Source of the DNA: a virus
Virus genome (UHGV): UHGV-1822439
Length of the DNA: 21,010 nucleotides
Reading direction: 5' to 3' (one strand)
Made by a program: the position numbers and the translations under genes. A model generated the notes under the pieces. It was not told the origin of the DNA. It made no database searches and saw only the letters and a program-made list of their open reading frames with translations. Positions 2,583 to 19,660 of the stretch are shown here, piece by piece (within the stretch, counting starts at the first letter, position 1; every line of letters starts with the position of its first letter).

Positions 2583-2623
2583 CATTTTGTGATCTGTGTT
2601 ACATTCCTGACCTATACAAAATG
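2583..2623. promoter_or_regulatory. Junction inverted-repeat element, site A
   Basis: CATTTTGTGATCTGTGT at 2583-2599 and TATACAAAATG at 2613-2623; TTTTGTGATCTGTGT is identical to site B (14768-14782). Lies between the divergent tail fiber (-) and lipoprotein (+) genes. Confidence 0.5.
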
Positions 2624-2701
2624 TATTTATTGATTTATATCAATGTTGAGAAAACGATGTTTATGGATACTACAACCGACGGAACAATGGAGGATAAGAC
2701 A

Positions 2702-2941
2702 ATGAAAGGCTTTAAAAATATCGCTATAGCTGCAATGGTCGCTGGTATGGTTGGTTGTGCTGATATGCCGAAACGTGAATGCACGGCAATTTATCAGGCT
2801 GGCGGTAATGAATATGCGGTTGCAGTCTTCGGTGTCGCGGATGTTGGCGGTCATAAAATGGTTAAGGCCGGGTATCCGTTTAACTTCCAATGGGTAAGCG
2901 TTGACCACTTCAAGAAAACGGATTGCCCGGAACTGAATTAA
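2702..2941 (+). CDS. Small lipoprotein (79 aa), antisense moron next to the tail fiber gene
   Basis: Perfect SD GGAGGA (2689-2694), 7 nt before ATG at 2702. N-terminus MKGFKNIAIAAMVAGMVG-C is a signal peptide with lipobox (MVGC); mature part ~60 aa with three further Cys. The ORF-track N-terminal extension from 2558 has no SD. Confidence 0.6.
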   Translation: MKGFKNIAIAAMVAGMVGCADMPKRECTAIYQAGGNEYAVAVFGVADVGGHKMVKAGYPFNFQWVSVDHFKKTDCPELN

Positions 2942-3537
2942 TCATAGGCGTCGGTTTTAATGGCGGTGATAGCGTTCCCGTGATTAATGTAACCGTAAAT
3001 CTGTTGCAAGCTACCAACCATCTTCCCGCGAATTCGTGTAGTGCTGCCGTTGTAGTATGCCTCTGTATATATTGTCGCAGAACCCATACCTACAACGGCC
3101 CCTAATATCTGAGGCACTACCGCATAAGATCCTGATAATGTCTGGTCGATATAAATTCCACCACTTGATCCGGCTGTCCCCACCGTAACAATGTCTGTCA
3201 ATATTCTTGATTCGTTTGTCAATACCAGTTCACCGGAAGCGTTCCATATAGCCATACCCCACTTCGGACGCGATTGCGGGAAGATACTGAATATATACGC
3301 GTAACCGTTTCCTGGTGGAATCACTATGGTAGACGATGAATTGCGATAGGCTACACCAGTAGCGGTATCGTCTGTGTTTTTTATGAATACCATTACAGGC
3401 TTCCCATTGGGGACGGCTATTGTTTGCTGTTGGCTTGAATTGAGAGCAACCCGTGAATAAAGGCACATAGGTGTCGAATCTGGAGTTACGAAAATATTGC
3501 CATTACTTAAACGTAAATAAGCGCCGAAAGTAGCCAT
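2938..3537 (-). CDS. Tail-associated hypothetical protein (199 aa), paralog of the upstream small gene
   Basis: ATG at 3537 directly abuts the upstream stop (TAAATG, 3540-3535). N-terminus MATFGAYLRLSNGN resembles MDTFGVATWDANGN of the upstream gene. Its 3' end converges on and overlaps the lipoprotein gene stop. Confidence 0.5.
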   Translation of the reverse strand: MATFGAYLRLSNGNIFVTPDSTPMCLYSRVALNSSQQQTIAVPNGKPVMVFIKNTDDTATGVAYRNSSSTIVIPPGNGYAYIFSIFPQSRPKWGMAIWNASGELVLTNESRILTDIVTVGTAGSSGGIYIDQTLSGSYAVVPQILGAVVGMGSATIYTEAYYNGSTTRIRGKMVGSLQQIYGYINHGNAITAIKTDAYD

Positions 3538-3849
3538 TTATGCGTTCTCCGTAAAAATAACCAGTTCACATTGCGATGCGGGCCATATATTAGCGCCCAC
3601 CGTATCCCCTGCTGAGGAAATGGAAACAGTACCGCCGGAAATACTGATCTTTCTACGCGTTGATGATGTTGTGCCATAATCAAGCGTCATGGCATAAGAT
3701 AATTTACATCCTGTAGGAACGGTAAAATTATATGTGCCTGACACTTGCCCGGAAGACAAGGAAATATAGCCAACCACGACGGATGGCTTGATGCCGTAGT
3801 TATTAGCGTTGCCGTTGGCGTCCCATGTTGCCACGCCGAAAGTATCCAT
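3538..3849 (-). CDS. Tail-associated hypothetical protein (103 aa)
   Basis: ORF 3538..3906 trimmed to ATG at 3849 (MDTFGVATWDANGNANNYG...), preceded by SD GGAGGTG; the longer ORF-track form would overlap the J stop and the post-J hairpin. Confidence 0.5.
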   Translation of the reverse strand: MDTFGVATWDANGNANNYGIKPSVVVGYISLSSGQVSGTYNFTVPTGCKLSYAMTLDYGTTSSTRRKISISGGTVSISSAGDTVGANIWPASQCELVIFTENA

Positions 3850-3860
3850 AGTTACACCTC

Positions 3861-3893
3861 CATAATAAAACTGAGGCCGAACAAGTCGGCCTC
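3861..3893 (-). terminator. Hairpin/attenuator immediately after J
   Basis: Stem GAGGCCGA (3873-3880) / TCGGCCTC (3886-3893), loop ACAAG; minus strand continues AGTTTTATTATGGAGG, i.e. U-rich tract then the SD of the next gene. Confidence 0.4.
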
Positions 3894-3899
3894 TTAATT

Positions 3900-6800
3900 C
3901 TACCATGATCCGGTAATTCGCCCAATCTGGACGCGTAACACGCCATTACCATCTTTTACTGAGATAGTTGTGTTCGTCCATTTCATTGCTCCTTCACCGC
4001 TTACTGATCCGTAGTTTTCGAATGTACCGGATTTATCAAGTTTCCAGCCTGTGCTGCCGGAAACATAGTTATTTGATTGGATGTAAGAACCTATTTTCGC
4101 GTTAGTGATTGATGCGTCCTTAATAAACGCTTCACGTACATACATTGCGCCGCCAGTGACATAGAAAGGCGTTGTATATGTGCCGTTTGCGGCGGTCATT
4201 AACACGAAGCGATCAACGAGGAAAATACACTGCGATTGGACATTAGTCCCGCTACCAGTAAGGCCGAGCGACATGCCGGTAGCATATTTAACGCCTCTGC
4301 TGTCTGTCGCGATCTTAATAGAGTATGATGCATCGACATTCCCCTTAAAGTCCGTTAACGCTTTCGATGTCGTCTCTATGGCTGTTGTGTTCCCGTCAAT
4401 AGTTACTTTTAACTGGTCAATTTTGGTTGATAATGCCTCGTCAGTCGTTGTCATGGCCTGTGACCATTCCGTGATACTTGAGTTTACATCGTCGAAAGAT
4501 GCCGATATTTGAACAAATTTTTCAGCACTTGATGCCTCGTGAGTTGCGAGCGCCGTTGATATATCTGTTATTTTTGCTGAAATGTTTTCATTAATATTGG
4601 CTTCAAGTGATGCTATAGCCTCCGCGCGGGCCTGGGTTTCGTCTGCTATTGCTGTGTCGATCCTTGCTATTTCCGCTTTTGTTTTTGTCTGGCCTTTCCT
4701 GTACTTCGCCTCAATAACGGTGCTCATCTTGCTTTGCGCTATTGAGTTGTTGATAAGTGCAATCGAGGCGTTTTGCAGACTTGCTTTTGCCTGATCTATT
4801 TCGTTGCTGTTTTTATCAACCTCATTTTCAACAAGACCAAGCTCCGCACTGATTCCTGATATTGCCTGAGCGCGGGCGCTTGATTCGTCAGCGATAGCTT
4901 GATCGAGACGAGAAACGCTCGCATCAGTTTTGTTTTCCAGGCTGCTGATACTGGCGTTAACGTTGCTTATAGCTTCCGTTCTCGCCTGCGTTTCGGTTGC
5001 GATTGCTTTGTCTACGCGGGCTATTTCTCCTTTGATGTTTGAGTCTATCGTATTTATTTCGGCTGTGATGGTTTCCAGTGATTCCGCTGTCGCTTTTTTC
5101 TCCTCTGCGATAACGTTGTCGATGCGGTCAATCTGTGCCTTTGTTTCGTTGCGACCTTTCTTATATTGAGCGGTAAGAGTAACCCGCGTGTTAGTTTGAG
5201 CAAGCGAGTTATTGATCAGAGCAAGCGAAGCGTTTTGTAAACTTGCTTTTGCCTGTGCCAGTTCGTTGTTAACGTTTTCGTTTGATACCTCTAATGAGTC
5301 TATTCTTACCTCATGTTTGCCTATTTCATCGGCGTTTTCTTCGACTTTTTTATAAAGGTCTTCGGTGTCTTTTTTAAGTGTATCTGTGTCAGCTTTAAGA
5401 TCCTCTGTAGCTATTTTAAGGTCTTCGGTAGCTCCTTCTACAATATCAGTGCGCTCACCAAGATCTTTAATGTCGCTAATCATCTCCTTGAATTGCTCTG
5501 ATTCCATTACATCCTTTGTAACGTAATCAGTGATTTCGTCAAAATCCTCTGTTGGCTTACCTGATGCCTCGACGAAATCAGACACACCAAAAGCATTACG
5601 AGTGCGCACATAAACGTAATAAGTATGGCCCGTATTCATGCCGCCGAACGTCCACTGATACCCGCGCCCGGTAAACTGTGCCGACGTGGTTATTTTTGCC
5701 GGATCTGTGATCTGATTTTCCCCTGCATAGTAGAATTCATATGACGTATCGGTAGTAAGCGTGGTTTTGCTTATCGGGTACACGGTCGCCTGAAATACGC
5801 CTGGAACCCAATTTACGCCAACTGGCGCGGCTGGAGCACCAATAACAAGATCAACAATGCTTTCAGCGCCTTTCATGCCAGTATCGTTTCTTCCGCGAAC
5901 GCCTAACGAATACGCGCCAGCGTCAATACCATAAAAATCATAACTGTATTTCGTTGTTTCGTAGCTTTTAACCACCGCACCATCAGTATTGTATATGCGG
6001 ATCTCGAATGTCATGCGATGCGTGGTTGTCTGTGTTTCCCATGTAGCTCGGCATTGAACTGTTTCAGATCCGATGTTTACCACTTTCAGGTTTTCAATGT
6101 TCGGGACACGGAAGTGATTAAGCGTGTCGTTGTTGATTTCAAATATCGCGCCTTCATCGACTACCGCTTGTTTGTTCGGGTCATGTTGCGCTGCTTCGAT
6201 GGTATACACGCTATTATTTTCGGTTTCGGCTACACTGGTGATCCGGCATAAAACGGGTTTTTCCGCTTCGGTGGATACAGCAAATACAGTACCGTTCCGA
6301 ATCCATGCCGGGGCCGCCGCTAGTGTGATTTCGTTTCCGTTTACACCAGTAATCTGATGTTTTTTAAATTTGCCGTCGCTGTCGAGTAAGCTGATGGTGT
6401 CGCCTGCTGTGATATAGTCGCTGTCAACCTTATCGACCGTTATCACGTTTCCATTGTTCGCCACGATACGCCCACCTAAACGCGCACCTGCGCGGTTATT
6501 GTCGAGGATTTCGACTATATCCCCTGGCGTAAAGTGAATCGCGTCACGTGCCATTTTAAACGTGAATTTTGACGGCTCGCGTTTTGCTGTTTCTATCAGC
6601 CATTTGCCCGCGCGGTACGCTTGCCCGCGTGACGTACAGCCGAACGCCTCCATCGTGGTTTCGTTGTAACCATCGCGGGCGATTAGCTCATCATCTGCTA
6701 CATACTCTTTTGACTGCTCCCACCCGTTTTCCGGGTCAGTCCAGGATACGATCACGGCGTTGTAGCATTCCGCACGGGCGATACTCGAACGAGTGAACGC

Positions 6801-7952
6801 GCCATCAACGACGTTTGCATTCGTAATGGTGGCGATTGGATCTTGCGGTGCATCAATCATTACGGTAAGACGTTGCCCGTCCCATAACGCGATGCCACGG
6901 AACATCCCGGCGATATTGTCCAGCAAATCGCGGGCGCTCATTTGCTCTGTTATGTACGCATTAAGCGTCACGCGAGGCTCAAGGCCACCGTAACCATCAT
7001 CGACCAACTGGTCGCAGTATTGGGAAAGTGTGTATAATGCGCCGTCGTCAACGTCGATATAACCAGCATGGCGGGCAAGGCCGAAACGCTCGTTTTTAAC
7101 CAGGTAACGAAAGATCCACGCAGGGTTATTAGTGTAAGCCTGTTTAAAGCCGCCAAGCCATAAACCGGAATAAGTGCGCGTTTCCGGGTCGTAGTTATCA
7201 GGCACGTCAACAATAAGCCCACGCAGGTGATAAGTGCGTGTAGGTGTGTCAGTATACTGATCGTGATCAATTACCGCGCCTGCTACAGCAGTGTGAGGAT
7301 AAGACAAATTATCGTCGATTATTTCGCTGTAGCTACTCCACCGCGTATCATTCTGCAATAGATCACCTGTGCTATCAGCGGTTACGCGGCGAACGCGAAT
7401 ATCAAACGGCTTTTCATCTGGCGCATCAATAATATGCGCTTCAAGGTATTCTCCGCTGATTTTACCTGGACCTATTTGCACGGCCTTAATAGACGACCAT
7501 GTTGAGGATGAGGACGGTTTAACGTCGATCGCCATAATGACAGATGTTTCTTTCTGGTTTGATTGGCTATCGCTTTCCACCAGTGAATCCACACCAATAT
7601 TTAACCGGACTCGCGTCACGTTCGGATCTGATACGGTCCTTACCAGCGGCGTGTCGTGTTTCACCTGTGCGTTAACCATTACCGTGGATTCGATGGCATT
7701 AAAACCGTTAATCGGTGATTGATCTAACGTACCATTACGCCACGCCACGCTAACGCCTGGGATGCTGGTATTACCGTTCGCGTCAGTTACAGGCGTGTCA
7801 TTAAGCATTACGCTATTTAATGGCGCACTGGTATTGACAGGGCCATAAATCGGGCCTTCCGAAATAATATCCAGCACACGATAAAACTGTTTGTGATAAA
7901 GGTTATCATTTATTAATGTTGGTGTTTTTGCTTTGCCGCCGCCGCTACTCAT
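3900..7952 (-). CDS. J: Host specificity protein J (tail tip / central tail fiber), 1350 aa
   Basis: Shares N-terminal motifs with lambda J as I recall it (ISEGPI.GPV, YHLRG, NAY.T, FGCTSRGQA.RAG.WLI); SD AGGAG before ATG at 7952. C-terminal third is a long repetitive coiled-coil unlike lambda J. Confidence 0.9.
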   Translation of the reverse strand: MSSGGGKAKTPTLINDNLYHKQFYRVLDIISEGPIYGPVNTSAPLNSVMLNDTPVTDANGNTSIPGVSVAWRNGTLDQSPINGFNAIESTVMVNAQVKHDTPLVRTVSDPNVTRVRLNIGVDSLVESDSQSNQKETSVIMAIDVKPSSSSTWSSIKAVQIGPGKISGEYLEAHIIDAPDEKPFDIRVRRVTADSTGDLLQNDTRWSSYSEIIDDNLSYPHTAVAGAVIDHDQYTDTPTRTYHLRGLIVDVPDNYDPETRTYSGLWLGGFKQAYTNNPAWIFRYLVKNERFGLARHAGYIDVDDGALYTLSQYCDQLVDDGYGGLEPRVTLNAYITEQMSARDLLDNIAGMFRGIALWDGQRLTVMIDAPQDPIATITNANVVDGAFTRSSIARAECYNAVIVSWTDPENGWEQSKEYVADDELIARDGYNETTMEAFGCTSRGQAYRAGKWLIETAKREPSKFTFKMARDAIHFTPGDIVEILDNNRAGARLGGRIVANNGNVITVDKVDSDYITAGDTISLLDSDGKFKKHQITGVNGNEITLAAAPAWIRNGTVFAVSTEAEKPVLCRITSVAETENNSVYTIEAAQHDPNKQAVVDEGAIFEINNDTLNHFRVPNIENLKVVNIGSETVQCRATWETQTTTHRMTFEIRIYNTDGAVVKSYETTKYSYDFYGIDAGAYSLGVRGRNDTGMKGAESIVDLVIGAPAAPVGVNWVPGVFQATVYPISKTTLTTDTSYEFYYAGENQITDPAKITTSAQFTGRGYQWTFGGMNTGHTYYVYVRTRNAFGVSDFVEASGKPTEDFDEITDYVTKDVMESEQFKEMISDIKDLGERTDIVEGATEDLKIATEDLKADTDTLKKDTEDLYKKVEENADEIGKHEVRIDSLEVSNENVNNELAQAKASLQNASLALINNSLAQTNTRVTLTAQYKKGRNETKAQIDRIDNVIAEEKKATAESLETITAEINTIDSNIKGEIARVDKAIATETQARTEAISNVNASISSLENKTDASVSRLDQAIADESSARAQAISGISAELGLVENEVDKNSNEIDQAKASLQNASIALINNSIAQSKMSTVIEAKYRKGQTKTKAEIARIDTAIADETQARAEAIASLEANINENISAKITDISTALATHEASSAEKFVQISASFDDVNSSITEWSQAMTTTDEALSTKIDQLKVTIDGNTTAIETTSKALTDFKGNVDASYSIKIATDSRGVKYATGMSLGLTGSGTNVQSQCIFLVDRFVLMTAANGTYTTPFYVTGGAMYVREAFIKDASITNAKIGSYIQSNNYVSGSTGWKLDKSGTFENYGSVSGEGAMKWTNTTISVKDGNGVLRVQIGRITGSW
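4616..5300 (-). repeat. Internal duplicated coiled-coil units within J
   Basis: About 165-nt units at ~4681-4850 and ~5140-5300 (protein ELAQAKASLQNASLALINNSLAQ... vs EIDQAKASLQNASIALINNSIAQ...), plus ~60-nt related units at ~4616-4670, ~4858-4915, ~4970-5030 (R.D.AIA.E..AR..AI). Confidence 0.7.
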
Positions 7953-7966
7953 GGTTAATTCTCCTG

Positions 7967-8497
7967 TTAACTTACAACGTCTAAAGCGTCTTTATTGTTG
8001 GTTGTGTCTATGCCTAACGATCCGACGTTTGAACCTACTTTCATTTCGCCAAGTAGAATAGGCACTGGTCTACCCTGTCCTACCTTGTTTTCTACGCTGG
8101 TATAAGTGTTATTTGTGATGGTATTGTCCTGTGCGCTTTCTGATGATGTTTTTACCTTCATGTTGCGAGACATAAAAATAGAAAAAGCGACACTAACAAC
8201 TGATATTCCAATCATAATCCAGCCGACAACGCCGATCCCTGCTATACCACCTTCCACTATTGGCGCAATAATTACTGTAGTTCCATCTGGATATTTGCTA
8301 TTAACCGCCGCTGGCGCGGTCTTTTCGTCGTAATCTTTCCCGGCAATTCGTAAGCGCAAAGGAGTATTTAAAAACGCCTTCTTGAATTCCTGATTCTGCG
8401 CGGTCAATAAGCGAAGCCCTTGCGCTGGCGTTTCAACGTTTAAACACACTTTGCTGTAATATCTTCGAAGATTGCCCGTAAATCTAAATTTGAGCAT
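7967..8497 (-). CDS. I: Tail assembly protein I (176 aa)
   Basis: Position between K and J; N-terminal resemblance to lambda I and a Gly/Ile-rich hydrophobic segment (GIAGIGVVGWIMIGISVV). Overlaps the 3' end of K by 58 nt. Confidence 0.7.
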   Translation of the reverse strand: MLKFRFTGNLRRYYSKVCLNVETPAQGLRLLTAQNQEFKKAFLNTPLRLRIAGKDYDEKTAPAAVNSKYPDGTTVIIAPIVEGGIAGIGVVGWIMIGISVVSVAFSIFMSRNMKVKTSSESAQDNTITNNTYTSVENKVGQGRPVPILLGEMKVGSNVGSLGIDTTNNKDALDVVS

Positions 8498-9171
8498 TTA
8501 TCAGATCTCCATATTGAATGCGTTTGTCGAACATAAGCAGGCCGCATTTGCTCGCGGCGGCTTAATAGTCCGGCATGGTCATGATGCAAAACCGTGTTAT
8601 CACCCAGGTAAATCATTGCGTGGCATGGATCCGCACCTTTAAACGGCTGTCTGATGATTACGTCACCTGGCTGGATGCTTTGCGCATCAACCTGATAAAA
8701 CCCGTTTTGCGGCAAGTTTTTTAAATACAGGTTTTCACCGCGCAGCCACCAGCCATCAAGGCGCTCGAAGTCCGGCAGGTCTACACCACAAAGGTGATAG
8801 GCGTCACGGAAAAGCGCGTAGCAGTCAGTTACCCCGTGCACAAACTTACGGCCTAGCAGGTGCGCCACCGGGCGAAATTTTCTTATCTTGCCGCCGGAAT
8901 ATAAAAACCACGGCAGACCGGAAATAACCTGCTGTTGTCGATCCCGCGCAGACAATACCGAAATATCATCAACGTGGGAGTGGAAAACGGCGGTTATAAC
9001 GCCCAATTCGTCCGCTTTGATGTAATCGTCCGGCGAAATCTTGAAGCTGTTGTAAGGTGTTTCAGACACGTTAGCGCACGGGTAAAAATACTCGTTATCT
9101 ATTACAAGTCCGCAAACTTCCTCAAACGGATGCGCGGCGGCATAACGCGACATTTTGTCTTCCATCCCCAT
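8440..9171 (-). CDS. K: Tail assembly protein K (NlpC/P60 peptidase plus MPN/JAB-like region)
   Basis: Motifs matching lambda K as recalled: FHSHVDD (lambda VHSHPGG) and HGVTDCYALFRDAYHL (NlpC/P60 Cys). Start set to ATG at 9171, 3 nt after the L stop; the ORF-track extension to 9246 overlaps L. Confidence 0.85.
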   Translation of the reverse strand: MGMEDKMSRYAAAHPFEEVCGLVIDNEYFYPCANVSETPYNSFKISPDDYIKADELGVITAVFHSHVDDISVLSARDRQQQVISGLPWFLYSGGKIRKFRPVAHLLGRKFVHGVTDCYALFRDAYHLCGVDLPDFERLDGWWLRGENLYLKNLPQNGFYQVDAQSIQPGDVIIRQPFKGADPCHAMIYLGDNTVLHHDHAGLLSRREQMRPAYVRQTHSIWRSDKCSNLDLRAIFEDITAKCV

Positions 9172-9173
9172 GA

Positions 9174-9878
9174 TTAACCTACCTTGCTGGAACCAGGAAA
9201 ACAGGAGATCGGCAGTGCTGCCGGACGCGGAAAACGCAAACGGCAACCGCTAAGGCGGTGGCTGCATTTGTCTAACGTTGGGTCACTTGTTGGTGTATCT
9301 TTATCAGTTGCGACCGGGCCGCCAGAATACATGCACCCGTCGCCTCTGTATTGCCACTGACAAACGTCAGCAAGGATGGTGCGCCCTGGGATAACGGCTT
9401 TATCTGCATCAATTGGCGTTGACAATTCATATTGCACCTGATCCGCTGTTTCTTCGCTCATTGCTTCAACGACGTAAAAAGATACAGCCTCAATAGATGG
9501 ATCTGCGTCTGGATTGCCGTTAGGGAAGTTAACGGCGTCCAGGTATTTAACCTCCACCTGGCGGCGCGTAACCTTCATTCCTCGCAGGTCGTTGAAATCG
9601 TTATTCATCCCTGTGATTAGCCCGCCGATATTGGCTACAACCATTTGAGGCCGCGAATAAACGCCCTCGTTTTTCATTTCGAAGCCCGTCGTCTCGATCG
9701 GGTAGCTGTTGTAAGCTACTCCCTTCCAGATAACCTGGCCGTAATAGCCGTTCGCGCCGGAATGGAAGCGGATAACCTCGCCTCCCAGGGGAGTAAGGTC
9801 CAGTTCAAATAAGTCAATGACCGCGCCAACTCCGGCATCGACGGAATCAATAATCATCTCTCTCGGAATATTGCGCAT
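9174..9878 (-). CDS. L: Minor tail protein L (234 aa)
   Basis: Similarity to lambda L (RRQVEVKYLDAVNF vs RRKVYARFLDAVNF; C-terminal Cys cluster C..GCMY..KCSHRLSGC). SD AAGGTGAG 5 nt before ATG at 9878. Confidence 0.85.
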   Translation of the reverse strand: MRNIPREMIIDSVDAGVGAVIDLFELDLTPLGGEVIRFHSGANGYYGQVIWKGVAYNSYPIETTGFEMKNEGVYSRPQMVVANIGGLITGMNNDFNDLRGMKVTRRQVEVKYLDAVNFPNGNPDADPSIEAVSFYVVEAMSEETADQVQYELSTPIDADKAVIPGRTILADVCQWQYRGDGCMYSGGPVATDKDTPTSDPTLDKCSHRLSGCRLRFPRPAALPISCFPGSSKVG

Positions 9879-9891
9879 TTTCTCACCTTGT

Positions 9892-9930
9892 CATTTTGTG
9901 ATATGCGTCACGCTAAATCACACCAAAATG
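9892..9930. promoter_or_regulatory. Junction inverted-repeat element, site C
   Basis: CATTTTGTGAT (9892-9902) and ATCACAccAAAATG (9917-9930) form an imperfect inverted repeat, 14 nt upstream of the L start on the minus strand and just before the plus-strand cassette. Confidence 0.5.
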
Positions 9931-9932
9931 GA

Positions 9933-9961
9933 TTGTTCATGGTTTTTACAATATGTATATT
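9933..9961 (+). promoter_or_regulatory. Candidate sigma70 promoter for the L/M-junction cassette
   Basis: TTGTTC (9933-9938), 17-nt spacer, TATATT (9956-9961). Weak -35; by eye only. Confidence 0.3.
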
Positions 9962-10007
9962 TTACTCAAACGAAGGGGAAGTTAACAAAATGGCGCGGAG
10001 GTGCGTT

Positions 10008-10196
10008 ATGACTGAAAAGCCATGGAAGTTGACGGTATTCATGACAGACGGTAGGGAAAAGGTTATCGCCCTGTATGACGACGAGGGGGAAGCATTGGTT
10101 GACGCGCTTTTACTTGCTGAGGATGACCGCCTTTTGGGATACCAGATCGAACCTGTCAAATATGAGGCTAACAAAAATGAAAAAATACAGTCTTGA
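10008..10196 (+). CDS. Small acidic protein (62 aa), first gene of the L/M-junction cassette
   Basis: SD GGAGG (9997-10001) 6 nt before ATG 10008. MTEKPWKLTVFMTDGREKVIALYDDEGEALVDALLLAEDD...PVKYEAN; paralogous to the N-terminus of the next gene. An alternative start at ATG 9990 is possible. Confidence 0.55.
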   Translation: MTEKPWKLTVFMTDGREKVIALYDDEGEALVDALLLAEDDRLLGYQIEPVKYEANKNEKIQS

Positions 10197-10524
10197 TGTG
10201 TGGTTAAGTGGTAGCAAGGAGTGTTTCGGATTATTTGATAGCGAAGAAGTAGCCCTGGAAGAAGGCAGGATTCTTGAATGTAGTTTAGGCCATCCAGTGA
10301 AATATGCTGCTAATCCGGTACAGATAGTTGATGAGGTGGAAGATATGAACCCGAAAGATATTAATGTTAACTTCAATGTTAATTTTGCAGACTCTATGGA
10401 TCAGTCTTGCCCTGGTGAAATACACGCAAAAGGTTTCCCGGCTGACGATCCAGAAGCAAAACGCGAATACGAAAAAGCTGCGAAAGACTTCTGCATGGAT
10501 AATCTTGCAGCATTCGATAAATAA
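10177..10524 (+). CDS. Acidic protein (115 aa), tandem paralog of the preceding gene with a C-terminal extension
   Basis: ATG 10177 overlaps the preceding gene by 20 nt. N-terminus SLDVWLSGSKECFGLFDSEEVAL...GHPVKYAAN aligns with ...LTVFMTDGREKVIALYDDEGEAL...GYQIEPVKYEAN; strongly acidic. A GTG at 10198 is an alternative start. Confidence 0.55.
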   Translation: MKKYSLDVWLSGSKECFGLFDSEEVALEEGRILECSLGHPVKYAANPVQIVDEVEDMNPKDINVNFNVNFADSMDQSCPGEIHAKGFPADDPEAKREYEKAAKDFCMDNLAAFDK

Positions 10525-10533
10525 GGGGGATAC

Positions 10534-10782
10534 ATGGGGCGGCGCAATCACGGCGATTATGTGTACACGCTGAAACAGGCCGCCCGCCTCGTTGGTTATC
10601 ATGAACACGAATTTATTGATTTGCTGATTGAGCGCGGGATACTGTACCAGGTCTGTTTAACGCTGTACCCGAAAGCTAAATACCTACAGGAAAAGTTATT
10701 TATCATCATGACGGATGAAAACCAGGTTAACCATTCATTCGTCACTGATAAGGGCGTTAATTATCTGCGTGATAACTTATAG
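10534..10782 (+). CDS. Small protein (82 aa), possible helix-turn-helix DNA-binding protein
   Basis: SD AAGGGGGA (10524-10530) before ATG 10534, 9 nt after the preceding stop. Segment TLKQAARLVGYHEHEFIDLLIERGIL has a helix-turn-helix-like pattern (by inspection only). Confidence 0.5.
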   Translation: MGRRNHGDYVYTLKQAARLVGYHEHEFIDLLIERGILYQVCLTLYPKAKYLQEKLFIIMTDENQVNHSFVTDKGVNYLRDNL

Positions 10783-10792
10783 GTGACAGATT

Positions 10793-10909
10793 ATGAAAAT
10801 AGAAGTTTTGGCGCTAATAATAATGGGATTGATAGTATTTGGCGTTCATGCTGTAGATCTGGACTGGAAAACGATAGCGGAAAATATAGCATTAATGGAA
10901 ATGGAATAA
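10793..10909 (+). CDS. 38-aa hydrophobic peptide (single TM or signal-peptide-like N-terminus)
   Basis: SD AGGTGA (10781-10786) before ATG 10793. MKIEVLALIIMGLIVFGVHAVDLDWKTIAENIALMEME, stop TAA followed by two more in-frame stops and a terminator. Below the ORF-track length cutoff. Confidence 0.45.
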   Translation: MKIEVLALIIMGLIVFGVHAVDLDWKTIAENIALMEME

Positions 10910-10914
10910 TAATA

Positions 10915-10940
10915 ACCCCGCTTCGCGCGGGGTCGTGTTT
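10915..10940. terminator. Intrinsic terminator closing the L/M-junction cassette (possibly bidirectional)
   Basis: Stem ACCCCGC (10915-10921) / GCGGGGT (10927-10933), loop TTCGC, then CGTGTTTAT; on the minus strand the hairpin is followed by TATTATTATT. Confidence 0.6.
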
Positions 10941-10987
10941 ATACGCCATCAACCAAAAATAAAACCCCCTTCCCTTCCCGGGATCTA

Positions 10988-11125
10988 CACCCCCACGTAC
11001 CCATCGCCAACGTCGTGAAGATACCATATATCGCCGTTGTCAGCTTTTACAGTAAGGTCGTTGATCTCATAGTCGTCAAACAATGTAAAAGCGTAAGTTT
11101 TGTCAACCACACAAGTCCCGTACAT
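10988..11125 (-). CDS. Possible small ORF (46 aa) just downstream of M
   Basis: ATG at 11125, 12 nt after the M stop, preceded by GGGGGG with about 6-nt spacing; MYGTCVVDKTYAFTLFDDYEINDLTVKADNGDIWYLHDVGDGYVGV. No family recognised. Confidence 0.3.
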
Positions 11126-11137
11126 AACAACCCCCCA

Positions 11138-11491
11138 TTAGCCAACAACTTGTTCAAACGTTGCGTTTAGCGTGTACACAGGCCCGTCTTTGGTCATGCT
11201 CCAGCTACGGCAAACGAAAAGCCTTTGCACCCCGTCGATCGATGGAGTCCAGTAAAACGCCTCGACAGCGCCGCGCGCCCTCAAAAATGCTTCGGCCTGG
11301 ATCGCCACGTTTCCACCATCACCACATCCCGCGCTACTGCCTTTGAAAACCAGGGTATAACTATCAAGCAACGTGTTAATCCCTTTCGCCTGGCGCTGTT
11401 CATAACCATCACCAAGTTTAACGACAGACACATTTGGTTCCCTGGTCACGCTGTAGCTTCTTTGCGGCGTCCATCTGAAAACTTCTGGCAT
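11138..11491 (-). CDS. M: Minor tail protein M (117 aa)
   Basis: Similarity to lambda M as recalled (FRW near N-terminus, GDGYEQR vs GDGYSQR, C-terminal FEQVVG vs FEQVVN). SD AGGGGGA before ATG 11491. Confidence 0.85.
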   Translation of the reverse strand: MPEVFRWTPQRSYSVTREPNVSVVKLGDGYEQRQAKGINTLLDSYTLVFKGSSAGCGDGGNVAIQAEAFLRARGAVEAFYWTPSIDGVQRLFVCRSWSMTKDGPVYTLNATFEQVVG

Positions 11492-11557
11492 GATTCCCCC
11501 TATAAGTTACATATTGCATACATCTTTACGCGCTTCTACGCGAAAAATGAGAAATTC

Positions 11558-11589
11558 ATCACAAGAATTATAACCAGTTTACAAAATGG
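11558..11589. promoter_or_regulatory. Junction repeat element, site D
   Basis: ATCACAAgAA (11558-11567) and TTTACAAAATGG (11578-11589): same half-site family as sites A-C, immediately upstream of the candidate promoter. Confidence 0.4.
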
Positions 11590-11590
11590 C

Positions 11591-11619
11591 TTCACATAAG
11601 GCGTGACAAGATGTATATA
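11591..11619 (+). promoter_or_regulatory. Candidate sigma70 promoter for the M/tape-measure-junction cassette
   Basis: TTCACA (11591-11596), 17-nt spacer, TATATA (11614-11619); about 40 nt upstream of the first SD. Confidence 0.45.
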
Positions 11620-11660
11620 GTAAGCAAGAAGAAAAAGCAGTACCGACAAAGGAGGCCAAT

Positions 11661-11816
11661 ATGAAGCGTTATGTAGTGGTAATGCTGAACAACGCATTCG
11701 AACAGGTGGAAGTGGCGATAGTCAAAGGCTTTGATGACGCATTCAAATACGGTCAATTCATGATGAATGCGAAGGAAAACGAGTACCGTGATTTCTTCCT
11801 GAAAGTGGTCAACTAA
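11661..11816 (+). CDS. Small protein (51 aa), first gene of the M/tape-measure-junction cassette
   Basis: Strong SD AAAGGAGG (11648-11655), 5 nt before ATG 11661; MKRYVVVMLNNAFEQVEVAIVKGFDDAFKYGQFMMNAKENEYRDFFLKVVN. Below the ORF-track cutoff. Could be the partner (antitoxin-like) of the next gene. Confidence 0.5.
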   Translation: MKRYVVVMLNNAFEQVEVAIVKGFDDAFKYGQFMMNAKENEYRDFFLKVVN

Positions 11817-11834
11817 TGGATTGTGGGGTGTGTT

Positions 11835-12089
11835 ATGAAATTGGTGGCGATTGGTAAAAACCTGAAAGCACAGAAAAACGCACAGGACCGGATCATCAAG
11901 AAAGGAAAGCAATTGCTTGATGCTTTTCTTAAAAAAGAGGCCAACCCCAAAAAATTACGCGATGGCTACGGTTATAAATTTGACATCAACCCCGATTGGC
12001 GGTTATTCAGCGAAGATTTAAAGATGTGGTTAATTATTGACCACCTGGAATATAACAGGCACTGTGGGGTGAAAGGCGCTCACAAGTGA
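11835..12089 (+). CDS. Small basic protein (84 aa), candidate RelE/ParE-superfamily-like toxin
   Basis: ATG 11835, 18 nt after the upstream stop. MKLVAIGKNLKAQKNAQDRIIKKGKQLLDAFLKKEANPKKLRDGYGYKFDINPDWRLFSEDLKMWLIIDHLEYNRH. Pattern (basic N-terminal helix, NP..KL..G, D.R, C-terminal H/Y) loosely resembles RelE/YafQ/YoeB toxins; weak, from memory. Confidence 0.3.
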   Translation: MKLVAIGKNLKAQKNAQDRIIKKGKQLLDAFLKKEANPKKLRDGYGYKFDINPDWRLFSEDLKMWLIIDHLEYNRHCGVKGAHK

Positions 12090-12120
12090 CACGGATTTGA
12101 ATGTTGCGGAGGAAAACAAA

Positions 12121-12291
12121 ATGAAAAATCCGGCAAATAAAAGCAACGTAAAACGCATGGCATGGGTGCTAAAATATATGGATAGTAAAGGGGATACATA
12201 TACATGCCCATTTTTTAGGTGTACTGACGCGGTATTTGCCAGAAGTGTACACGGAGGGAAAATTGAGAGAGGATATACAAGATTTGAGTAA
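12121..12291 (+). CDS. Small basic protein (56 aa), hypothetical
   Basis: SD GGAGG (12108-12112) 8 nt before ATG 12121; MKNPANKSNVKRMAWVLKYMDSKGDTYTCPFFRCTDAVFARSVHGGKIERGYTRFE. Confidence 0.45.
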   Translation: MKNPANKSNVKRMAWVLKYMDSKGDTYTCPFFRCTDAVFARSVHGGKIERGYTRFE

Positions 12292-12329
12292 ATTTATTCA
12301 CGAAATCAATAACATGATGAAGGTTTATA

Positions 12330-12509
12330 ATGATTATTCATGATACTGAAGAATGCAGAAGGATTGATCTTAGTATTGAAGATGACGGAAGATTATGGAT
12401 CGTTAGCGACTGCGAGATGATTGTAATAGACAAAAAGCAAGCTGACGAACTGATAAGAGCATTGCAGCTTTATGCAAACGGCGAATTTAAAAATGATGAA
12501 ATTGAATAA
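12330..12509 (+). CDS. Small acidic protein (59 aa), hypothetical
   Basis: SD GAAGG 8 nt before ATG 12330; MIIHDTEECRRIDLSIEDDGRLWIVSDCEMIVIDKKQADELIRALQLYANGEFKNDEIE; stop 12507-12509, immediately followed by a terminator. Confidence 0.45.
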   Translation: MIIHDTEECRRIDLSIEDDGRLWIVSDCEMIVIDKKQADELIRALQLYANGEFKNDEIE

Positions 12510-12513
12510 AATA

Positions 12514-12540
12514 GCCCCGGCATTGTGCCGGGGTTTTGTT
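12514..12540. terminator. Intrinsic terminator, bidirectional (closes the cassette; also follows the tape measure gene on the minus strand)
   Basis: Stem CCCCGGCA (12515-12522) / TGCCGGGG (12526-12533), loop TTG, then TTTTGTTTATTT on plus; on minus the hairpin is followed by CTATTTTATTC. Confidence 0.75.
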
Positions 12541-14753
12541 TATTTCCTGCGAGGTTGCAGCATTCCGCCTGGTCTGGATGATTCGCGGTGCATCAGGCCC
12601 ATGCAGATCCTTTCCATGTCCTGTTGCAGCTTTTTGGCATCCTCATCGCTCCATCCATTTTGTGGGTAAACACTAATCGGCGCGTTTATGCTAACGCTAC
12701 CACCACCAGCACCACCAATGTCGCGATTTGGTATTACCCTGCCGTTGTCACCCGGGATCATGTACTGACTCCCATTGCTCGCCTGAAAGATCTCCGGTTT
12801 ACCGTGTTCGCCGACCTTATAGAGGCTGCCCGCAGCCACCGCACCGCCGTTATAACGAGCGCCAGCCAGGCCAAGCGCTTTTGCTCCAGCCACACCAGTG
12901 GCAAGACTCGTACCCCCCACGGTCGCCGCGCCGCCCATCGTGGCTACGTTTGCCAGGTATGCAGGAGTAGCCCACGCAGATCCCAAAGCGGTAGCCTCTG
13001 CCAATGCTTTAGCTGTTGCGGCTGCGCTGGCGGCCTCGCCTATCAATTGCTGCTTGACCCATTCAGCCCCCATTTGAACAAGCGTACCGATAACGGAGGA
13101 AAGGATTGTATTGCCAATGTTAGCCAGCGCCTGCTGCCAGCTTTGAGTGCCGTTAACCAGGCCCACAAGCGCATTTGTTGCAGATCCGCCCATTGCATCA
13201 ACGGTATCGCCCAACAGTTTGTAGCTCATTGACTGTGCTTTATATCGCTCCCACTCAAGGGTGAGCATTTCCTGTGCGTGCGCTCTTTCTTGTTCCCTCA
13301 TATATTGCTCAGTAGCGCCAAGATCTTCCAGCATTTGCTTACGAACGGTCCATTCATTTTGCGCCTGCTGTATTGGGTCTAGTTCACCGCGCTTCTGATC
13401 CAGTGATGGAATCATTTTGTCCCATTTTTCTTGCAGCCTATTGATCGGGTCGTTAATTTCCGCCAGAGTTTCGCGCAATTCATCACCAATTCCCTTCATT
13501 GCGCCTTTGTATTCAAGCATGGTTATTTTCCCGGCTTTAAAGGCTGCATCTATGGCTTTTTGTGATTCAAGCGCTTTGCGCATTGCTGCCGAATCTTCGT
13601 TATATGCATCTGAAATGCGCACACCCTGTTCCGCAAGGCGCTCGGCTTCTGATTTGCCGGTTTTTTTACCTTTGCCTTTCTTACCCTTACCACCAGGTTG
13701 AGGCTTAAACGTTATGCGACTTACACCAGCTTGCCCCGTGGGGAGAGTGGAAACAAATGGCTGTTCTCCGCCATCAAACCATCCAACCTGTTTCGCTTGA
13801 GCGCGGAACAAACTAAGCCCAGGCACTATACCCTCAAACGCCCCAGCCAATAGCCACAATTTATCAGTTAATGACGTGCTATCGCTCGCCAGGGACTTAA
13901 ACCAACCAGATAACATCTGGACTTCACTAGAAACAGCCTGTATACCAGTAACTACCAAATCAGACACTCCAAGCGTTTGGTTTAGCGTGTCAATTAACAG
14001 ATCGAAGTTGTTTTTTAGCTCGTTAAATGCCTGATCTGTTGTTGTTGGCAGTTTTGCGAAGTCCTTCTCTATGTCTTCTGCGCCAGCAAGAATTGAATTG
14101 GTAACATCCTCGGCGGTGAGCTTACCATCAAGCATTCTTGCGCGAAGTTCACCCATCGAGATCCCCATTTGTTTGGCGACGCGTCGCCATACTTCGGGCA
14201 TGTTTTCAAGCACAGAGTTGTATTCTTCCGCGCGAACAATGCCACCCGTCAGGGACTGCCCTAACTGGCGAAGTGCGTTTGACATTTCATCTGATGAGCT
14301 ACCTCCGATACGGCCTATTTTCTGAAGCGAGTCGGTAAGCTGCAATACCTGCTGACTGGTCGCGCTGGTATCCTGTAGGCTGGCTTTTAGGCTTTCCCAC
14401 AGCTTCCCGGTGCTTTGAACACTCATCCCTGTGCGATTCGATATCTGAACAATCCCGTCAAAATTCGATTTTGCGTCAGCAATGCCGCTTGATAGTCGTG
14501 TTACCCTGGCGCGTAGCAGATTTACGTTATCTGCGATCTCCAGGAATTTTTTTGCAGCCATGACCATCATTCCAATGTTCACGGCTTTGGATAAATTACT
14601 TATCGTGGTATTAAGTGACTGCACTGATTTATCGGTGCGTTTAGCGCCTTGCTCGATTTTATCAAACGAGTCCTCCGCCTTGCGTTGAGCTACTAGTAAC
14701 CGCTCGGTTTTTGCGTCAACGGTATACTCAATCGTGCCCACATTTGTTGTCAT
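12540..14753 (-). CDS. Tail length tape measure protein (737 aa)
   Basis: Large ORF between the chaperone and M; alpha-helical, Ala/Gln/Leu-rich with Gly-rich and Lys-rich segments (KGKKGKGKK); SD GGAG before ATG 14753. Confidence 0.85.
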   Translation of the reverse strand: MTTNVGTIEYTVDAKTERLLVAQRKAEDSFDKIEQGAKRTDKSVQSLNTTISNLSKAVNIGMMVMAAKKFLEIADNVNLLRARVTRLSSGIADAKSNFDGIVQISNRTGMSVQSTGKLWESLKASLQDTSATSQQVLQLTDSLQKIGRIGGSSSDEMSNALRQLGQSLTGGIVRAEEYNSVLENMPEVWRRVAKQMGISMGELRARMLDGKLTAEDVTNSILAGAEDIEKDFAKLPTTTDQAFNELKNNFDLLIDTLNQTLGVSDLVVTGIQAVSSEVQMLSGWFKSLASDSTSLTDKLWLLAGAFEGIVPGLSLFRAQAKQVGWFDGGEQPFVSTLPTGQAGVSRITFKPQPGGKGKKGKGKKTGKSEAERLAEQGVRISDAYNEDSAAMRKALESQKAIDAAFKAGKITMLEYKGAMKGIGDELRETLAEINDPINRLQEKWDKMIPSLDQKRGELDPIQQAQNEWTVRKQMLEDLGATEQYMREQERAHAQEMLTLEWERYKAQSMSYKLLGDTVDAMGGSATNALVGLVNGTQSWQQALANIGNTILSSVIGTLVQMGAEWVKQQLIGEAASAAATAKALAEATALGSAWATPAYLANVATMGGAATVGGTSLATGVAGAKALGLAGARYNGGAVAAGSLYKVGEHGKPEIFQASNGSQYMIPGDNGRVIPNRDIGGAGGGSVSINAPISVYPQNGWSDEDAKKLQQDMERICMGLMHRESSRPGGMLQPRRK

Positions 14754-14766
14754 GATTGTTACTCCA

Positions 14767-14830
14767 CTTTTGTGATCTGTGTATCTATTTTATACAAAAT
14801 GTCTTTACTATAACGACTCCATTTTGTATA
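14767..14830. promoter_or_regulatory. Junction inverted-repeat element, site B
   Basis: CTTTTGTGATCTGTGT (14767-14782), TATACAAAATG (14791-14801), and its exact inverted copy CATTTTGTATA (14820-14830). Starts 14 nt upstream of the tape measure start and overlaps the candidate plus-strand promoter. Confidence 0.55.
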
Positions 14831-14832
14831 AA
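14804..14832 (+). promoter_or_regulatory. Candidate sigma70 promoter for the secreted-protein moron
   Basis: TTTACT (14804-14809), 17-nt spacer, TATAAA (14827-14832); followed by a purine-rich leader (14833-14909). Confidence 0.4.
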
Positions 14833-14909: not shown

Positions 14910-14999
14910 ATGAAAAACGTAAACTATCGTCCCAACGAACATGAACGCTATGCGGACTTCATAGAAGAAATGTTAAAAGCACTTAAAAACAAAAATTAA
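14910..14999 (+). CDS. Tiny ORF (29 aa), possible leader peptide or small protein
   Basis: SD AAGAGGA about 7 nt before ATG 14910; MKNVNYRPNEHERYADFIEEMLKALKNKN; stop 12 nt before the next start. Confidence 0.3.
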   Translation: MKNVNYRPNEHERYADFIEEMLKALKNKN

Positions 15000-15514: not shown

Positions 15515-15539
15515 GCCCGGATCTACCGGGCTTTTTCTT
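15515..15539. terminator. Intrinsic terminator, bidirectional
   Basis: Stem GCCCGG (15515-15520) / CCGGGC (15526-15531), loop ATCTA, flanked by AAAAAA and TTTTTCTT. The chaperone stop codon (15523-15525) lies in the loop. Confidence 0.8.
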
Positions 15540-16200
15540 GCTCGCGATTTTTCATTCTTTCCAGTACCTCCATAGCCTCCCTCATTCCATCGTCATAAGC
15601 CTTTTTGTCAAGCAATACATTTGGTCGTTTTTGTTTGTTTCTTGCTTCTTGCGGCATTTTGGCGCGTACTGCGGCCCTATATCCGGTCATTGTCATGCCC
15701 CATGCTTCTGATTCAGATAACCCCAGGTGGGCAACGGCAGAATAAACGAAATCAAGTACATCAAATGTCGGCTTGTACTCACCTTCCTGGATCTCGCTTG
15801 TATTTTCTTCCGGCCCGTCACCGATTAAACCGTGGTACATGCAATGCTGCGCCAGCGTGATAACGTCACTGGTAGGCATCAGTCCTGGTCTTAGTCGTAA
15901 CTTGCCGGAAGGAGTAAACCTACATTCGCCTAATAGCGTGCCTATTTCGTCGTCTGAGCAACATTTCAGGATGTGCATGGACGTTTGCACCATTTCACCA
16001 TAACACCGCGCCATAATGCGATTGCGAAGGTCTGGATCCGCTGGCAATCGTGATGGATATTTGCCACCGTGTATGGTTGCGAAGTATTCGACCAGTTCGC
16101 TGTCACTGCCGATTTTAGCCATTGCAGCGAAGCAGGGATTAAACACGTACCGCCTGCCGTCTACCACCGCCGCAAATTGTCCCGTTCGAACATGGATCAT
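15523..16200 (-). CDS. Tail assembly chaperone (G/T-like), 225 aa
   Basis: Assigned by position between tail tube and tape measure. ORF-track start 16209 is a GTG inside the SD AAGGTGA; ATG at 16200 (MIHVRTGQ...) is better placed. Single continuous ORF, no second-frame product seen. Confidence 0.45.
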   Translation of the reverse strand: MIHVRTGQFAAVVDGRRYVFNPCFAAMAKIGSDSELVEYFATIHGGKYPSRLPADPDLRNRIMARCYGEMVQTSMHILKCCSDDEIGTLLGECRFTPSGKLRLRPGLMPTSDVITLAQHCMYHGLIGDGPEENTSEIQEGEYKPTFDVLDFVYSAVAHLGLSESEAWGMTMTGYRAAVRAKMPQEARNKQKRPNVLLDKKAYDDGMREAMEVLERMKNREQEKAR

Positions 16201-19645: not shown

Positions 19646-19660
19646 TATGTATACCTCTTT

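Follow-up and report, generated by a model that had tools for sequence, protein, structure and literature searches.

In phage lambda, the CI repressor acts at OR and OL, pseudo-dyads that overlap divergent promoters beside the repressor gene, and OR1 and OR2 lie at about -16 and -41 on PR. In phage P1 and mycobacteriophage L5, one immunity repressor (C1 and gp71, respectively) binds many sites over the prophage, mostly in short intergenic spaces, and the stoperators of L5 are asymmetric with one orientation relative to transcription. For phage epsilon34, whose repressor has an N-terminal DNA-binding domain closest to that of phage L, a putative operator, WTACRAWWTGTAT, has been proposed, and in phage P22 the immI region ('ant moron') is a regulatory cassette in the late operon near the tail genes, which contains an antirepressor-type gene, is repressor-controlled and varies between relatives (PMC2629481). 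The mEpimmI phages were recognized in 2025 as a new group at the family level, and isolates from human stool contain them as often as lambdoid phages; Rep021, for which a plasmid (pRep021) exists, confers immunity, and its operators were touched on only in passing and left unidentified, with no discussion of morons or intergenic motifs (PMC11893012). In this study, we analyzed a stretch of 21,010 nt (virus genome UHGV-1822439; hereafter the window), which represents the tail-gene end of an E. coli prophage belonging to the mEp021 (mEpimmI) group, and a 13-bp pseudo-dyad within it, the box, of the form ATACA-N3-TG(T/G)AT (consensus form ATACA-N3-TGTAT). The box occurs at four junctions, named A, C, D and B, at which plus-strand cassettes interrupt the minus-strand late genes. 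We found that the boxes probably serve as operators of the prophage's own lambda-CI-like repressor (Rep021 in mEp021), with a probability of about 0.7, and that the junctions would be divergent control regions wired to this repressor. The analysis shows the sites themselves, with their enrichment, conservation, register to promoter elements and resemblance to the operators of homologous repressors; binding by the repressor, the direction of regulation and any use of CRP or FNR are what we infer from them.

Two features recall lambda: pseudo-dyads that overlap divergent promoters next to the repressor gene, and site centres near -16 and -41, approximately 25 bp apart. However, the site here is 13 bp instead of 17 bp long and has another sequence, it is scattered over about a dozen regions including four in the tail operon, no cro is recognizable, and the repressor gene and the rightward early operon are read in the same direction. 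The epsilon34/L type shares with this prophage the same 13-bp dyad and related repressor N-termini with an HWLN(G/A)RREP motif, but the sites of the reference phages are clustered beside the repressor gene (in the cI-cro spacer and at PL of Erwinia phage Midgardsormr38; short stretches were read in the other three), whereas here they are dispersed and their right half is usually TGG(A/C)T. With P1 C1 and L5 gp71, the common feature is a layout of dispersed operators under one repressor, although the protein families are unrelated; in contrast to the single orientation of L5 stoperators, both orientations occur here, and most strong sites are tied to promoter elements. P22 immI is similar in the location of a regulatory cassette inside the late operon, but P22 has dedicated repressors (Mnt and Arc) and an antisense RNA, whereas here the main immunity repressor is apparently wired to four cassettes that run against the late operon. 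What is known already is the lambda-CI-type repressor and the operator type proposed for epsilon34; the identification of an operator for the mEpimmI family and its dispersal over about a dozen control regions, four of them in the tail operon, appear to be new.

The assignment of the box to the repressor is based on the repressor itself and on its distant homologues. The protein contains a Cro/C1-type helix-turn-helix (HTH) domain and an S24 self-cleavage domain (Pfam), and its best match among solved structures is phage lambda CI (E = 1.4e-20). As the repressors of the group are ~96% identical to one another (PMC11893012) and thus offer no variation to test, distant CI homologues were used. 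Midgardsormr38 is lambdoid and has the layout cI/cro/cII; its CI protein and this repressor share 45% identity, the recognition helix being ITKGAVSHWLN in the former and ITKGGLSHWLN in the latter. Five occurrences of ATACANNNTGTAT with at most one mismatch were found in the 32.6 kb of Midgardsormr38 scanned (0.64 expected), and these were only three sites in the cI-cro spacer (ATACATTTCGTAT, ATACAAAATGTGT and ATACAGATTGTAT) and two in the PL region (ATACAAAACGTAT and ATACATTTTGTAT), the two places at which a lambda-type phage should have its operators. Phage L, Klebsiella phage KPP5665-2 and Enterobacter phage ENT1, whose HTH domains are related to that of this repressor (~55-61% identity over residues 1-70), have three such sites each between cI and cro. 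These three and Midgardsormr38 are unrelated phages, lambdoid or P22-like, whose CI recognition helices are almost that of this prophage. The window itself contains TATACAAAATGTAT, a full 13-bp pseudo-dyad of the WTACRAWWTGTAT operator type. The usual form in the mEp group is (T/A)TACAAAATG(G/T)(A/C)T, with a right half of mostly TGGAT or TGGCT rather than TGTAT, and the sites are strongly asymmetric.

A weight matrix derived from 16 foreign operators only (weakest training site, 11.3 bits; threshold, 11) was then applied to the whole 54-kb prophage, which was rebuilt from the window and locus L004 and is the source of the composite-prophage coordinates used below. It gave 15 matches, 12 of which were intergenic (block shuffles: mean 4.9, maximum 10), and none at this threshold in a 50-kb host chromosome control or an 8-kb host flank. 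All four junctions were matched (at 2614, 9946, 11507, 14792 and 14817; scores in Table 1). Matches were also obtained at the early promoter beside cI and at some ten other intergenic sites, and the corresponding positions were matched in mEp021, mEp013 and the prophage of E. coli strain M15. In the window, YACAAAATG occurs seven times (0.88 expected; none of 100 shuffles reached seven) and TACAAAATG with at most one mismatch 20 times (9.0 expected); the 11-mer as written in an earlier, sequence-only reading of this DNA was not enriched at up to two mismatches (15 vs 10.3 expected). In an unbiased k-mer count over the whole prophage, ACAAAATG was the top intergenic 8-mer, with 15 copies in 6.6 kb of intergenic and seven in 47 kb of coding sequence; mEp021 has 14 copies (3.45 expected) at matching places, whereas the 50-kb host control was at background (4 vs 2.5 expected). 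The sequence-only reading had proposed a genome-wide search to see whether the motif is confined to the prophage. It is indeed prophage-specific and not host-wide, but it is not restricted to junctions or morons: eight further exact copies of YACAAAATG (1.26 expected), nearly all intergenic, are present in the remaining 37 kb (including ~4 kb of host flank), for instance ahead of nutR2, in the interval that separates erf from the N-like gene, and in front of the helicase gene. A stoperator-like orientation bias was not seen, both orientations being found in every operon, and a literature search for the strings TACAAAATGG and CCATTTTGTA returned unrelated primer sequences only.

Box copies are present on both sides of the repressor gene. 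On the rightward side, a box (15.1 bits) adjoins the -35 element of the early promoter at -41. On the leftward side, two inverted boxes lie between the repressor gene and the first leftward gene, and one more is found at the cI start codon; there are boxes over the -10 element of the leftward promoter and beside the -35 element of the presumed cI promoter. The box, as TCCATTTTGTA(T/A)ACTT, is the only substantial sequence common to the two control regions flanking the repressor gene, and in lambda-type phages the sequences shared at those two control regions are the operators. The ATTTTAAG/CTTAAAAT palindrome between the two boxes beside cI was considered as the true operator and rejected, as it is not conserved in relatives. 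A different protein might occupy the boxes, either a host factor or the first leftward early product, a small winged-helix (MarR-like) protein in Cro's place. No recognizable Cro was found in this phage group and no Cro family for this 81-aa protein; a Cro-type protein normally shares the operators of CI, so both could use the sites, and the strong asymmetry of the sites in the group would fit another binder. However, a Cro analogue sharing the sites would add to repressor control and not replace it, the host control is not enriched, and the link between box and CI-type recognition helix across five phage groups points to the repressor. To our knowledge, and as far as comparison by eye can tell, the box fits none of the consensus sequences of IHF, Fis, OmpR, TyrR, DnaA and NarL. 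We therefore regard a different binder as improbable. The gene for the 81-aa protein (L004 23937-24182) has no Pfam match, and its RefSeq label in relatives is MarR-like or helix-turn-helix.

The anatomy of the junctions is summarized in Table 1.

Table 1. Coordinates of the predicted regulatory features in and beside the cassettes (window positions; mismatches are to the 13-bp dyad, bits are from the 16-site matrix)
Feature	Position (strand)	Sequence	Remarks
Repeat copy	2583-2593; 9892-9902	CATTTTGTGAT
Repeat copy	2613-2623; 14791-14801; exact inverse 14820-14830	TATACAAAATG
Repeat copy	11578-11588	TTTACAAAATG
CRP-like dyad A	2588..2603 (+)	TGTGATCTGTGTTACA	9/10 of CRP core
Box A2, junction A	2614..2626	ATACAAAATGTAT	0 mismatches to ATACANNNTGTAT; 19.1 bits, equal to best training site
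Perfect FNR-type box	2630..2643	TTGATTTATATCAA	upstream of cor; 1 match vs 0.06 expected
CRP-like dyad C	9897..9912 (+)	TGTGATATGCGTCACG	contains CATTTTGTGAT (9892-9902); 9/10; centre -63.5 of C(+)
Box C2, junction C upstream	9921..9933 (+)	CACCAAAATGGAT	centre -41; abuts -35
Predicted sigma-70 promoter C(+)	9933..9961 (+)	-35 TTGTTC 9933-9938; -10 TATATT 9956-9961	17-nt spacer
Putative core operator, junction C	9946..9958	TTACAATATGTAT	centre -16; last three bases TAT start the -10; 1 mismatch; 16.4 bits
Two-way terminator	10914-10934
Operator-like site	11507..11519	TTACATATTGCAT	16 nt upstream of minor tail gene M start; 11.4 bits; kept in relatives
CRP-like dyad D	11548..11563 (+)	TGAGAAATTCATCACA	includes CATCACAAG; 9/10; centre -70.5 of D(+)
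Predicted promoter D(+)	11579..11619 (+)	-35 TTCACA 11591-11596; -10 TATATA 11614-11619
D box, upstream	11579-11591	TTACAAAATGGCT	centre -41
D box, core	11604-11616	TGACAAGATGTAT	centre -16
Two-way terminator	12513-12535
Junction B half-site	14768..14786 (+)	TTTTGTGATCTGTGT, as at A	only TGTGAT half of CRP-like site kept
Putative operator, junction B	14792-14804 (region 14789..14832)	ATACAAAATGTCT	1 mismatch; 14.2 bits
Putative operator, junction B	14817-14829 (region 14789..14832)	CTCCATTTTGTAT	2 mismatches; 11.4 bits; 25 bp from the preceding site
Predicted promoter B(+)	-35 14804-14809; -10 14827-14832	-10 TATAAA
Predicted promoter B(-)	-35 14812-14817; -10 14789-14794	-10 TATAAA	faces tape-measure gene
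Two-way terminator, weak	15527-15544
Rightward early promoter		TTGACT-17-TATATT	strong; downstream of cI; precedes nutR1 and N-like gene

The sequence-only reading had described a shared inverted-repeat half-site at the four junctions. The repeat is real at all of them, all quoted strings were found where it had placed them, TTTTGTGATCTGTGT is the same at 2586-2600 and 14768-14782, and the distances to the start codons are right (fibre, 41 nt; L, 14 nt; tape measure, 13 nt). Its proposal of a common operator for a dimeric regulator also holds in essence, since the box matches the operator type of this repressor's CI family, but the operator is phage-wide and includes the early promoters beside the repressor gene. 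On the other hand, the model of a ATCACAAAATG/CATTTTGTGAT pair of distant half-sites has to be given up. Each 13-bp box is a self-contained pseudo-dyad; paired copies are spaced by 25 bp (the two boxes of junction B), ~31-33 bp (the pairs quoted at C and A) or 35 bp (the two boxes beside the repressor gene) instead of a fixed distance, and single copies are found at many other loci as well as at junction D, which has a single copy of the core. What was taken for one motif family consists of two elements, i.e. the 13-bp pseudo-dyad (A2, D, B2, B3 and a weak C2) and CRP-like dyads that include the CATTTTGTGAT copies.

At junction B, the two predicted promoters are back-to-back and served reciprocally, each putative operator lying at -41 of one and -16 of the other; the chance that a random position has a partner scoring at least 11 at a distance of 24-26 bp is 0.002. 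The -35 element of B(-), GTCGTT, is poor. A module shared by junctions A and B is visible in local alignment. The junction C promoter and the rightward early promoter are paralogues (local alignment score, 27.5 vs a shuffle maximum of 17; window 9921-10000 vs L004 22790-22865), and the similarity includes ~35 nt of leader (TCAAA.GAAGGG..AG.TAACAAAA), and box C2 has the same register as the box at that early promoter; the -35 of C(+) matches at only three of six positions. C(+) would drive the cassette at 10008-10782 and D(+) that at 11661-12509. The minus strand of junction A contains ATGGTAAAAT, for which relatives have ATGGTAGAAT; from its sequence this would be an extended -10 that faces the fibre gene. 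In a strict sigma-70 scan (T at the last -10 position and at least 4/6 per hexamer) the junction promoters were not listed; the promoter calls thus rest on register and conservation. As observations apart from promoter assignment, strain M15 carries an IS903B inside junction A, between the fibre gene and the upstream boxes (L001 3044-4012, corresponding to about 2545-2580 of the window, which is without the insertion), and an unannotated conserved ORF (open reading frame) of 29 codons, MKNVNYRPNEHERYADFIEEMLKALKNKN, with its own Shine-Dalgarno sequence lies at 14910-14999 (+), between the junction B promoter and the 165-aa gene, and was found in six of seven relatives.

When eight promoter candidates (rightward early, C(+), D(+), B(+), B(-), leftward early, pre-nutR2 and an early-region antisense promoter) were aligned on the -10 element, seven of them showed an operator-like site at exactly -16 and five showed one at -41 or -40. 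The recurrent TGTATAnn is explained by this register, because the -16 site and the -10 hexamer overlap by three bases, which end the former and begin the latter. The -16 matches at C, D and the early-region antisense promoter had not been used in choosing the promoters and were found afterwards. A universal two-operator arrangement was tried and dropped; in an unbiased test for partners, 25-bp pairing had support only at B, for the early-region pair and, marginally, at the early promoter beside cI. Reading the box as a -10 element of the other strand was likewise rejected, as by eye the base at -7 is not conserved across copies. The register would also suit a promoter feature without any specific regulator, in which the A-tract is a proximal UP-element subsite for the alpha subunit of RNA polymerase that has been spread by copying of promoter modules. 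The A-tract lies at -43 to -40, the position of the proximal UP subsite (Estrem et al. in 1999 reportedly gave a consensus of AAAAAARNR at -46 to -38), the box register is fixed at six promoters, and the junction C promoter is clearly a paralogue of the early promoter beside cI. However, invariant C and G positions are unexpected for an UP element, many copies are off -41 (over a -10, or between co-directional genes as upstream of the helicase gene) and in both orientations, many are not at promoters at all, and the same type of 13-mer at the cI-cro operator positions of four unrelated phages would be left unexplained. It appears unlikely that the box is such an element.

Conservation gave a further indication of protein binding. 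The sequence-only reading had asked whether the junction sequences are conserved in related prophages, and seven related phages and prophages do keep them, even when they carry other cargo genes. Box A2 is kept in six relatives with a lipoprotein cassette and is at the same place in mEp021; the site at 9946-9958 is invariant in seven genomes and at the same place in mEp021, mEp013 and M15; ACAAGATGTATA and GTTTAC..A.ATGG are conserved at junction D; and TCTATTTTATACAAAATG and TTTTGTATA are invariant in seven genomes at junction B. In alignments of seven or eight genomes, the promoter spacers of C, D, B and the early promoter beside cI have an invariant 3' half, i.e. the core box, whereas their 5' half is variable, which is the pattern of a putative protein-binding footprint. 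The -10 element of C(+) is likewise invariant in seven genomes.

The same comparison bears on the idea, also raised by the sequence-only reading, that the repeats are linkers or scars of moron insertion or exchange. The window is ~85% identical to mEp013, mEp021 and related phages, and four cassettes are found at the same four positions in every relative examined with variable content (cor and two lipoprotein types behind junction A, and differing gene sets at C, D and B), the exception being the prophage PAR, which has no fibre/cor cassette. Such variation of cargo behind conserved junctions speaks for this idea. However, in PAR (L009 2501-2611) ATACATATCGTAA joined to TAAACT comes immediately after the J terminator and is itself followed by the fibre gene, the same arrangement of box and -10 as at the leftward early promoter. 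As this cassette-less prophage keeps an operator-like box before the fibre gene, the boxes appear to belong to backbone regulation and not to be cassette scars; besides, boxes are common at cassette-free places, including both sides of the repressor gene, and the fixed -35/-10 register implies a regulatory role. A purely recombinational origin is very improbable, although conserved promoters could double as crossover points. An RNA-level role has even less to recommend it. Inverted copies might form hairpins in late mRNA before the fibre, L and tape-measure genes, affecting processing, stability or translation; the elements do lie 13-41 nt before start codons, and the junction B pair can form a 13-bp stem (z -1.8 and -2.7). 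Yet junctions A and C fold no better than shuffles (z -0.3 and -0.5), mEp021-type genomes have changes at junction C that disrupt the pairing and are not compensated, only one copy is present at junction D and at most other sites, and no Rfam family is matched, which makes such hairpins extremely improbable as the explanation. All of these alternatives fit fewer facts than the reading of the boxes as repressor operators.

Several observations nevertheless weigh against the operator assignment. First, the operators of the four reference phages were assigned by position, the lambda paradigm and a published proposal, and not by footprints. Second, the boxes beside the repressor gene are not the strongest ones: those on the leftward-promoter side score only 9-10 bits, compared with 16-19 for several dispersed sites, and the leftward-side box is ACAGAATGG in most relatives, while at the rightward early promoter the box at -41 is the sole strong one, the -16 candidate TTACGGGGCGTAT scoring 5.9 bits. 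In lambda, the -41 position activates PRM as well as repressing PR. Third, the junctions are uneven. No convincing sigma-70 promoter is in register with the perfect box at junction A, C2 is degenerate (2.5 bits), and both D boxes are weak (6.5 and 7.4 bits with a five-site matrix; 9.1 for the core with the 16-site matrix). Fourth, several of the eight promoters had been chosen for the motif, which makes the -41 register partly circular. Finally, two strong matches involve coding sequence (composite-prophage coordinates 23445 and 19640, the latter at the start codon of the capsid gene), and a third, at 138, belongs to the host flank.

The second element of the junctions is of a different kind. 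The CATTTTGTGAT copies score poorly as operators and are mostly part of CRP-like dyads, TGTGA-N6-TCACA. Three such dyads with at most one mismatch are present in the window (0.55 expected), and junctions A, C and D account for all of them. A perfect dyad (10/10) precedes nutR2, and the leftward control region has another with one mismatch. Dyad A overlaps the CATTTTGTGAT copy at 2583-2593, which is merely a weak box (TCACAAAATGGTA, minus strand); its TGTGATCT is kept in six relatives, with a varying second half (TTACA or TTGCA). The half-sites of dyad C, TTTGTGAT and TCACGC, are invariant in seven genomes, and TGAGA and TCACA of dyad D are retained in the six relatives that keep the region, the spacer being variable in both cases. 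At junction B, the CRP core is matched at 7/10 positions in the window and 7-8/10 in relatives. Relative to the predicted start sites, the centres lie at -59.5, -60.5, -63.5 and -70.5, which would be compatible with class I activation by CRP. The dyads resemble the class I CRP sites of E. coli, which lie at about -61.5 or -71.5, in sequence (9-10/10) and in their predicted position; unlike them, each one overlaps a weak repressor box, and junction B has a half-site only. In addition, the FNR-type box before cor lies 22 nt before a -10-like GATACT (2666-2671), with its centre at -41.5, similar to class II FNR sites of E. coli (TTGAT-N4-ATCAA at -41.5). Box and distance are kept in five of six relatives, being absent in mEp021, and the four mEp013, mEp010, MagusPhagus and Ecol_244 keep them before two lipoprotein types. 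This suggests that superinfection exclusion may be under anaerobic control.

Taken together, the operators would occupy about a dozen intergenic regulatory regions, four of them the tail-operon junctions, instead of just two clusters beside the repressor gene. Each junction would be a divergent control region with a sigma-70-type promoter for the plus-strand cassette and an operator centred at -16 (across the spacer and -10), at -41 (beside the -35) or at both. In the lysogen, the repressor would occupy these sites and control the cassette promoters of C, D and B, most likely keeping them shut, and the minus-strand promoter-like elements before the tape-measure and fibre genes would be held likewise; upon induction or infection, the junction promoters would become active along with the early promoters. 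Host signals may feed in as a second input, through the CRP-like dyads 60-70 bp upstream and the FNR-type box before cor. In our estimate, there is about an even chance that, on balance, the C, D and B cassettes are silenced in the lysogen and released on induction. The cor promoter, with no box over its core, may escape repressor control.

The sequence-only reading regarded the cassettes as morons, and they do show features of these: their own promoters (predicted at C, D and B) and terminators (Table 1), and variability among relatives. However, the operator-like sites at -16 and/or -41 predict that the cassette promoters would be controlled by the repressor, which would speak against moron autonomy. 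Constitutive expression in a lysogen of the ParE-like toxin domain of the D cassette (11835-12089; Pfam E = 5.9e-12) or of the KilAC antirepressor domain fragment of the C cassette (82 aa; 10534-10782) would be surprising. A more far-reaching and rather doubtful extension is a genome-wide regulon, in which a RecA-cleavable CI-type repressor would act through about a dozen dispersed operators in the style of P1 C1, four of them silencing head-on cassettes (ParE-like toxin domain, KilAC antirepressor fragment and exclusion lipoproteins) that would be immediate-early functions, set free by induction, and not lysogenic-conversion morons, their CRP- and FNR-tuned convergent transcription gating or timing the tail genes.

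The analysis provides a concrete candidate sequence for the operator, together with the genes that the repressor is predicted to control. If it is true, the opposite-strand cassettes would be wired to the lysis-lysogeny switch, and possibly also to host carbon and oxygen signals, rather than being free-running morons, which bears on the timing of expression of exclusion, toxin and antirepressor-like genes. This would also be an unusual lambda-type repressor with many dispersed operators.

With regard to the wider setting, a near-identical prophage is present in strain M15, where it is inserted between dgcM and ynaN/zntB, and host DNA extends from position 1 to ~320 of the window. The minus strand carries the late genes for capsid, tail tube, tape measure, M, L, K, I, J and fibre. 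Additional operator-like sites were observed outside the junctions. The first, ATACAAACCGTGT at 138-150 (12.5 bits), is in the host flank outside the prophage end and could be due to chance. The second is a perfect operator-like palindrome, ATACATTATGTAT (18.8 bits), over the start codon of the major capsid gene at 19640-19652, which is present in M15 and not at that place in mEp021. The third belongs to a consensus-like promoter, TATACA-16-TATATT, at L004 ~18713-18755 (+), where a perfect operator-type box is centred at -16 and another box at -40; this promoter is antisense into the rightward early operon and might give an antisense RNA or a small ORF.

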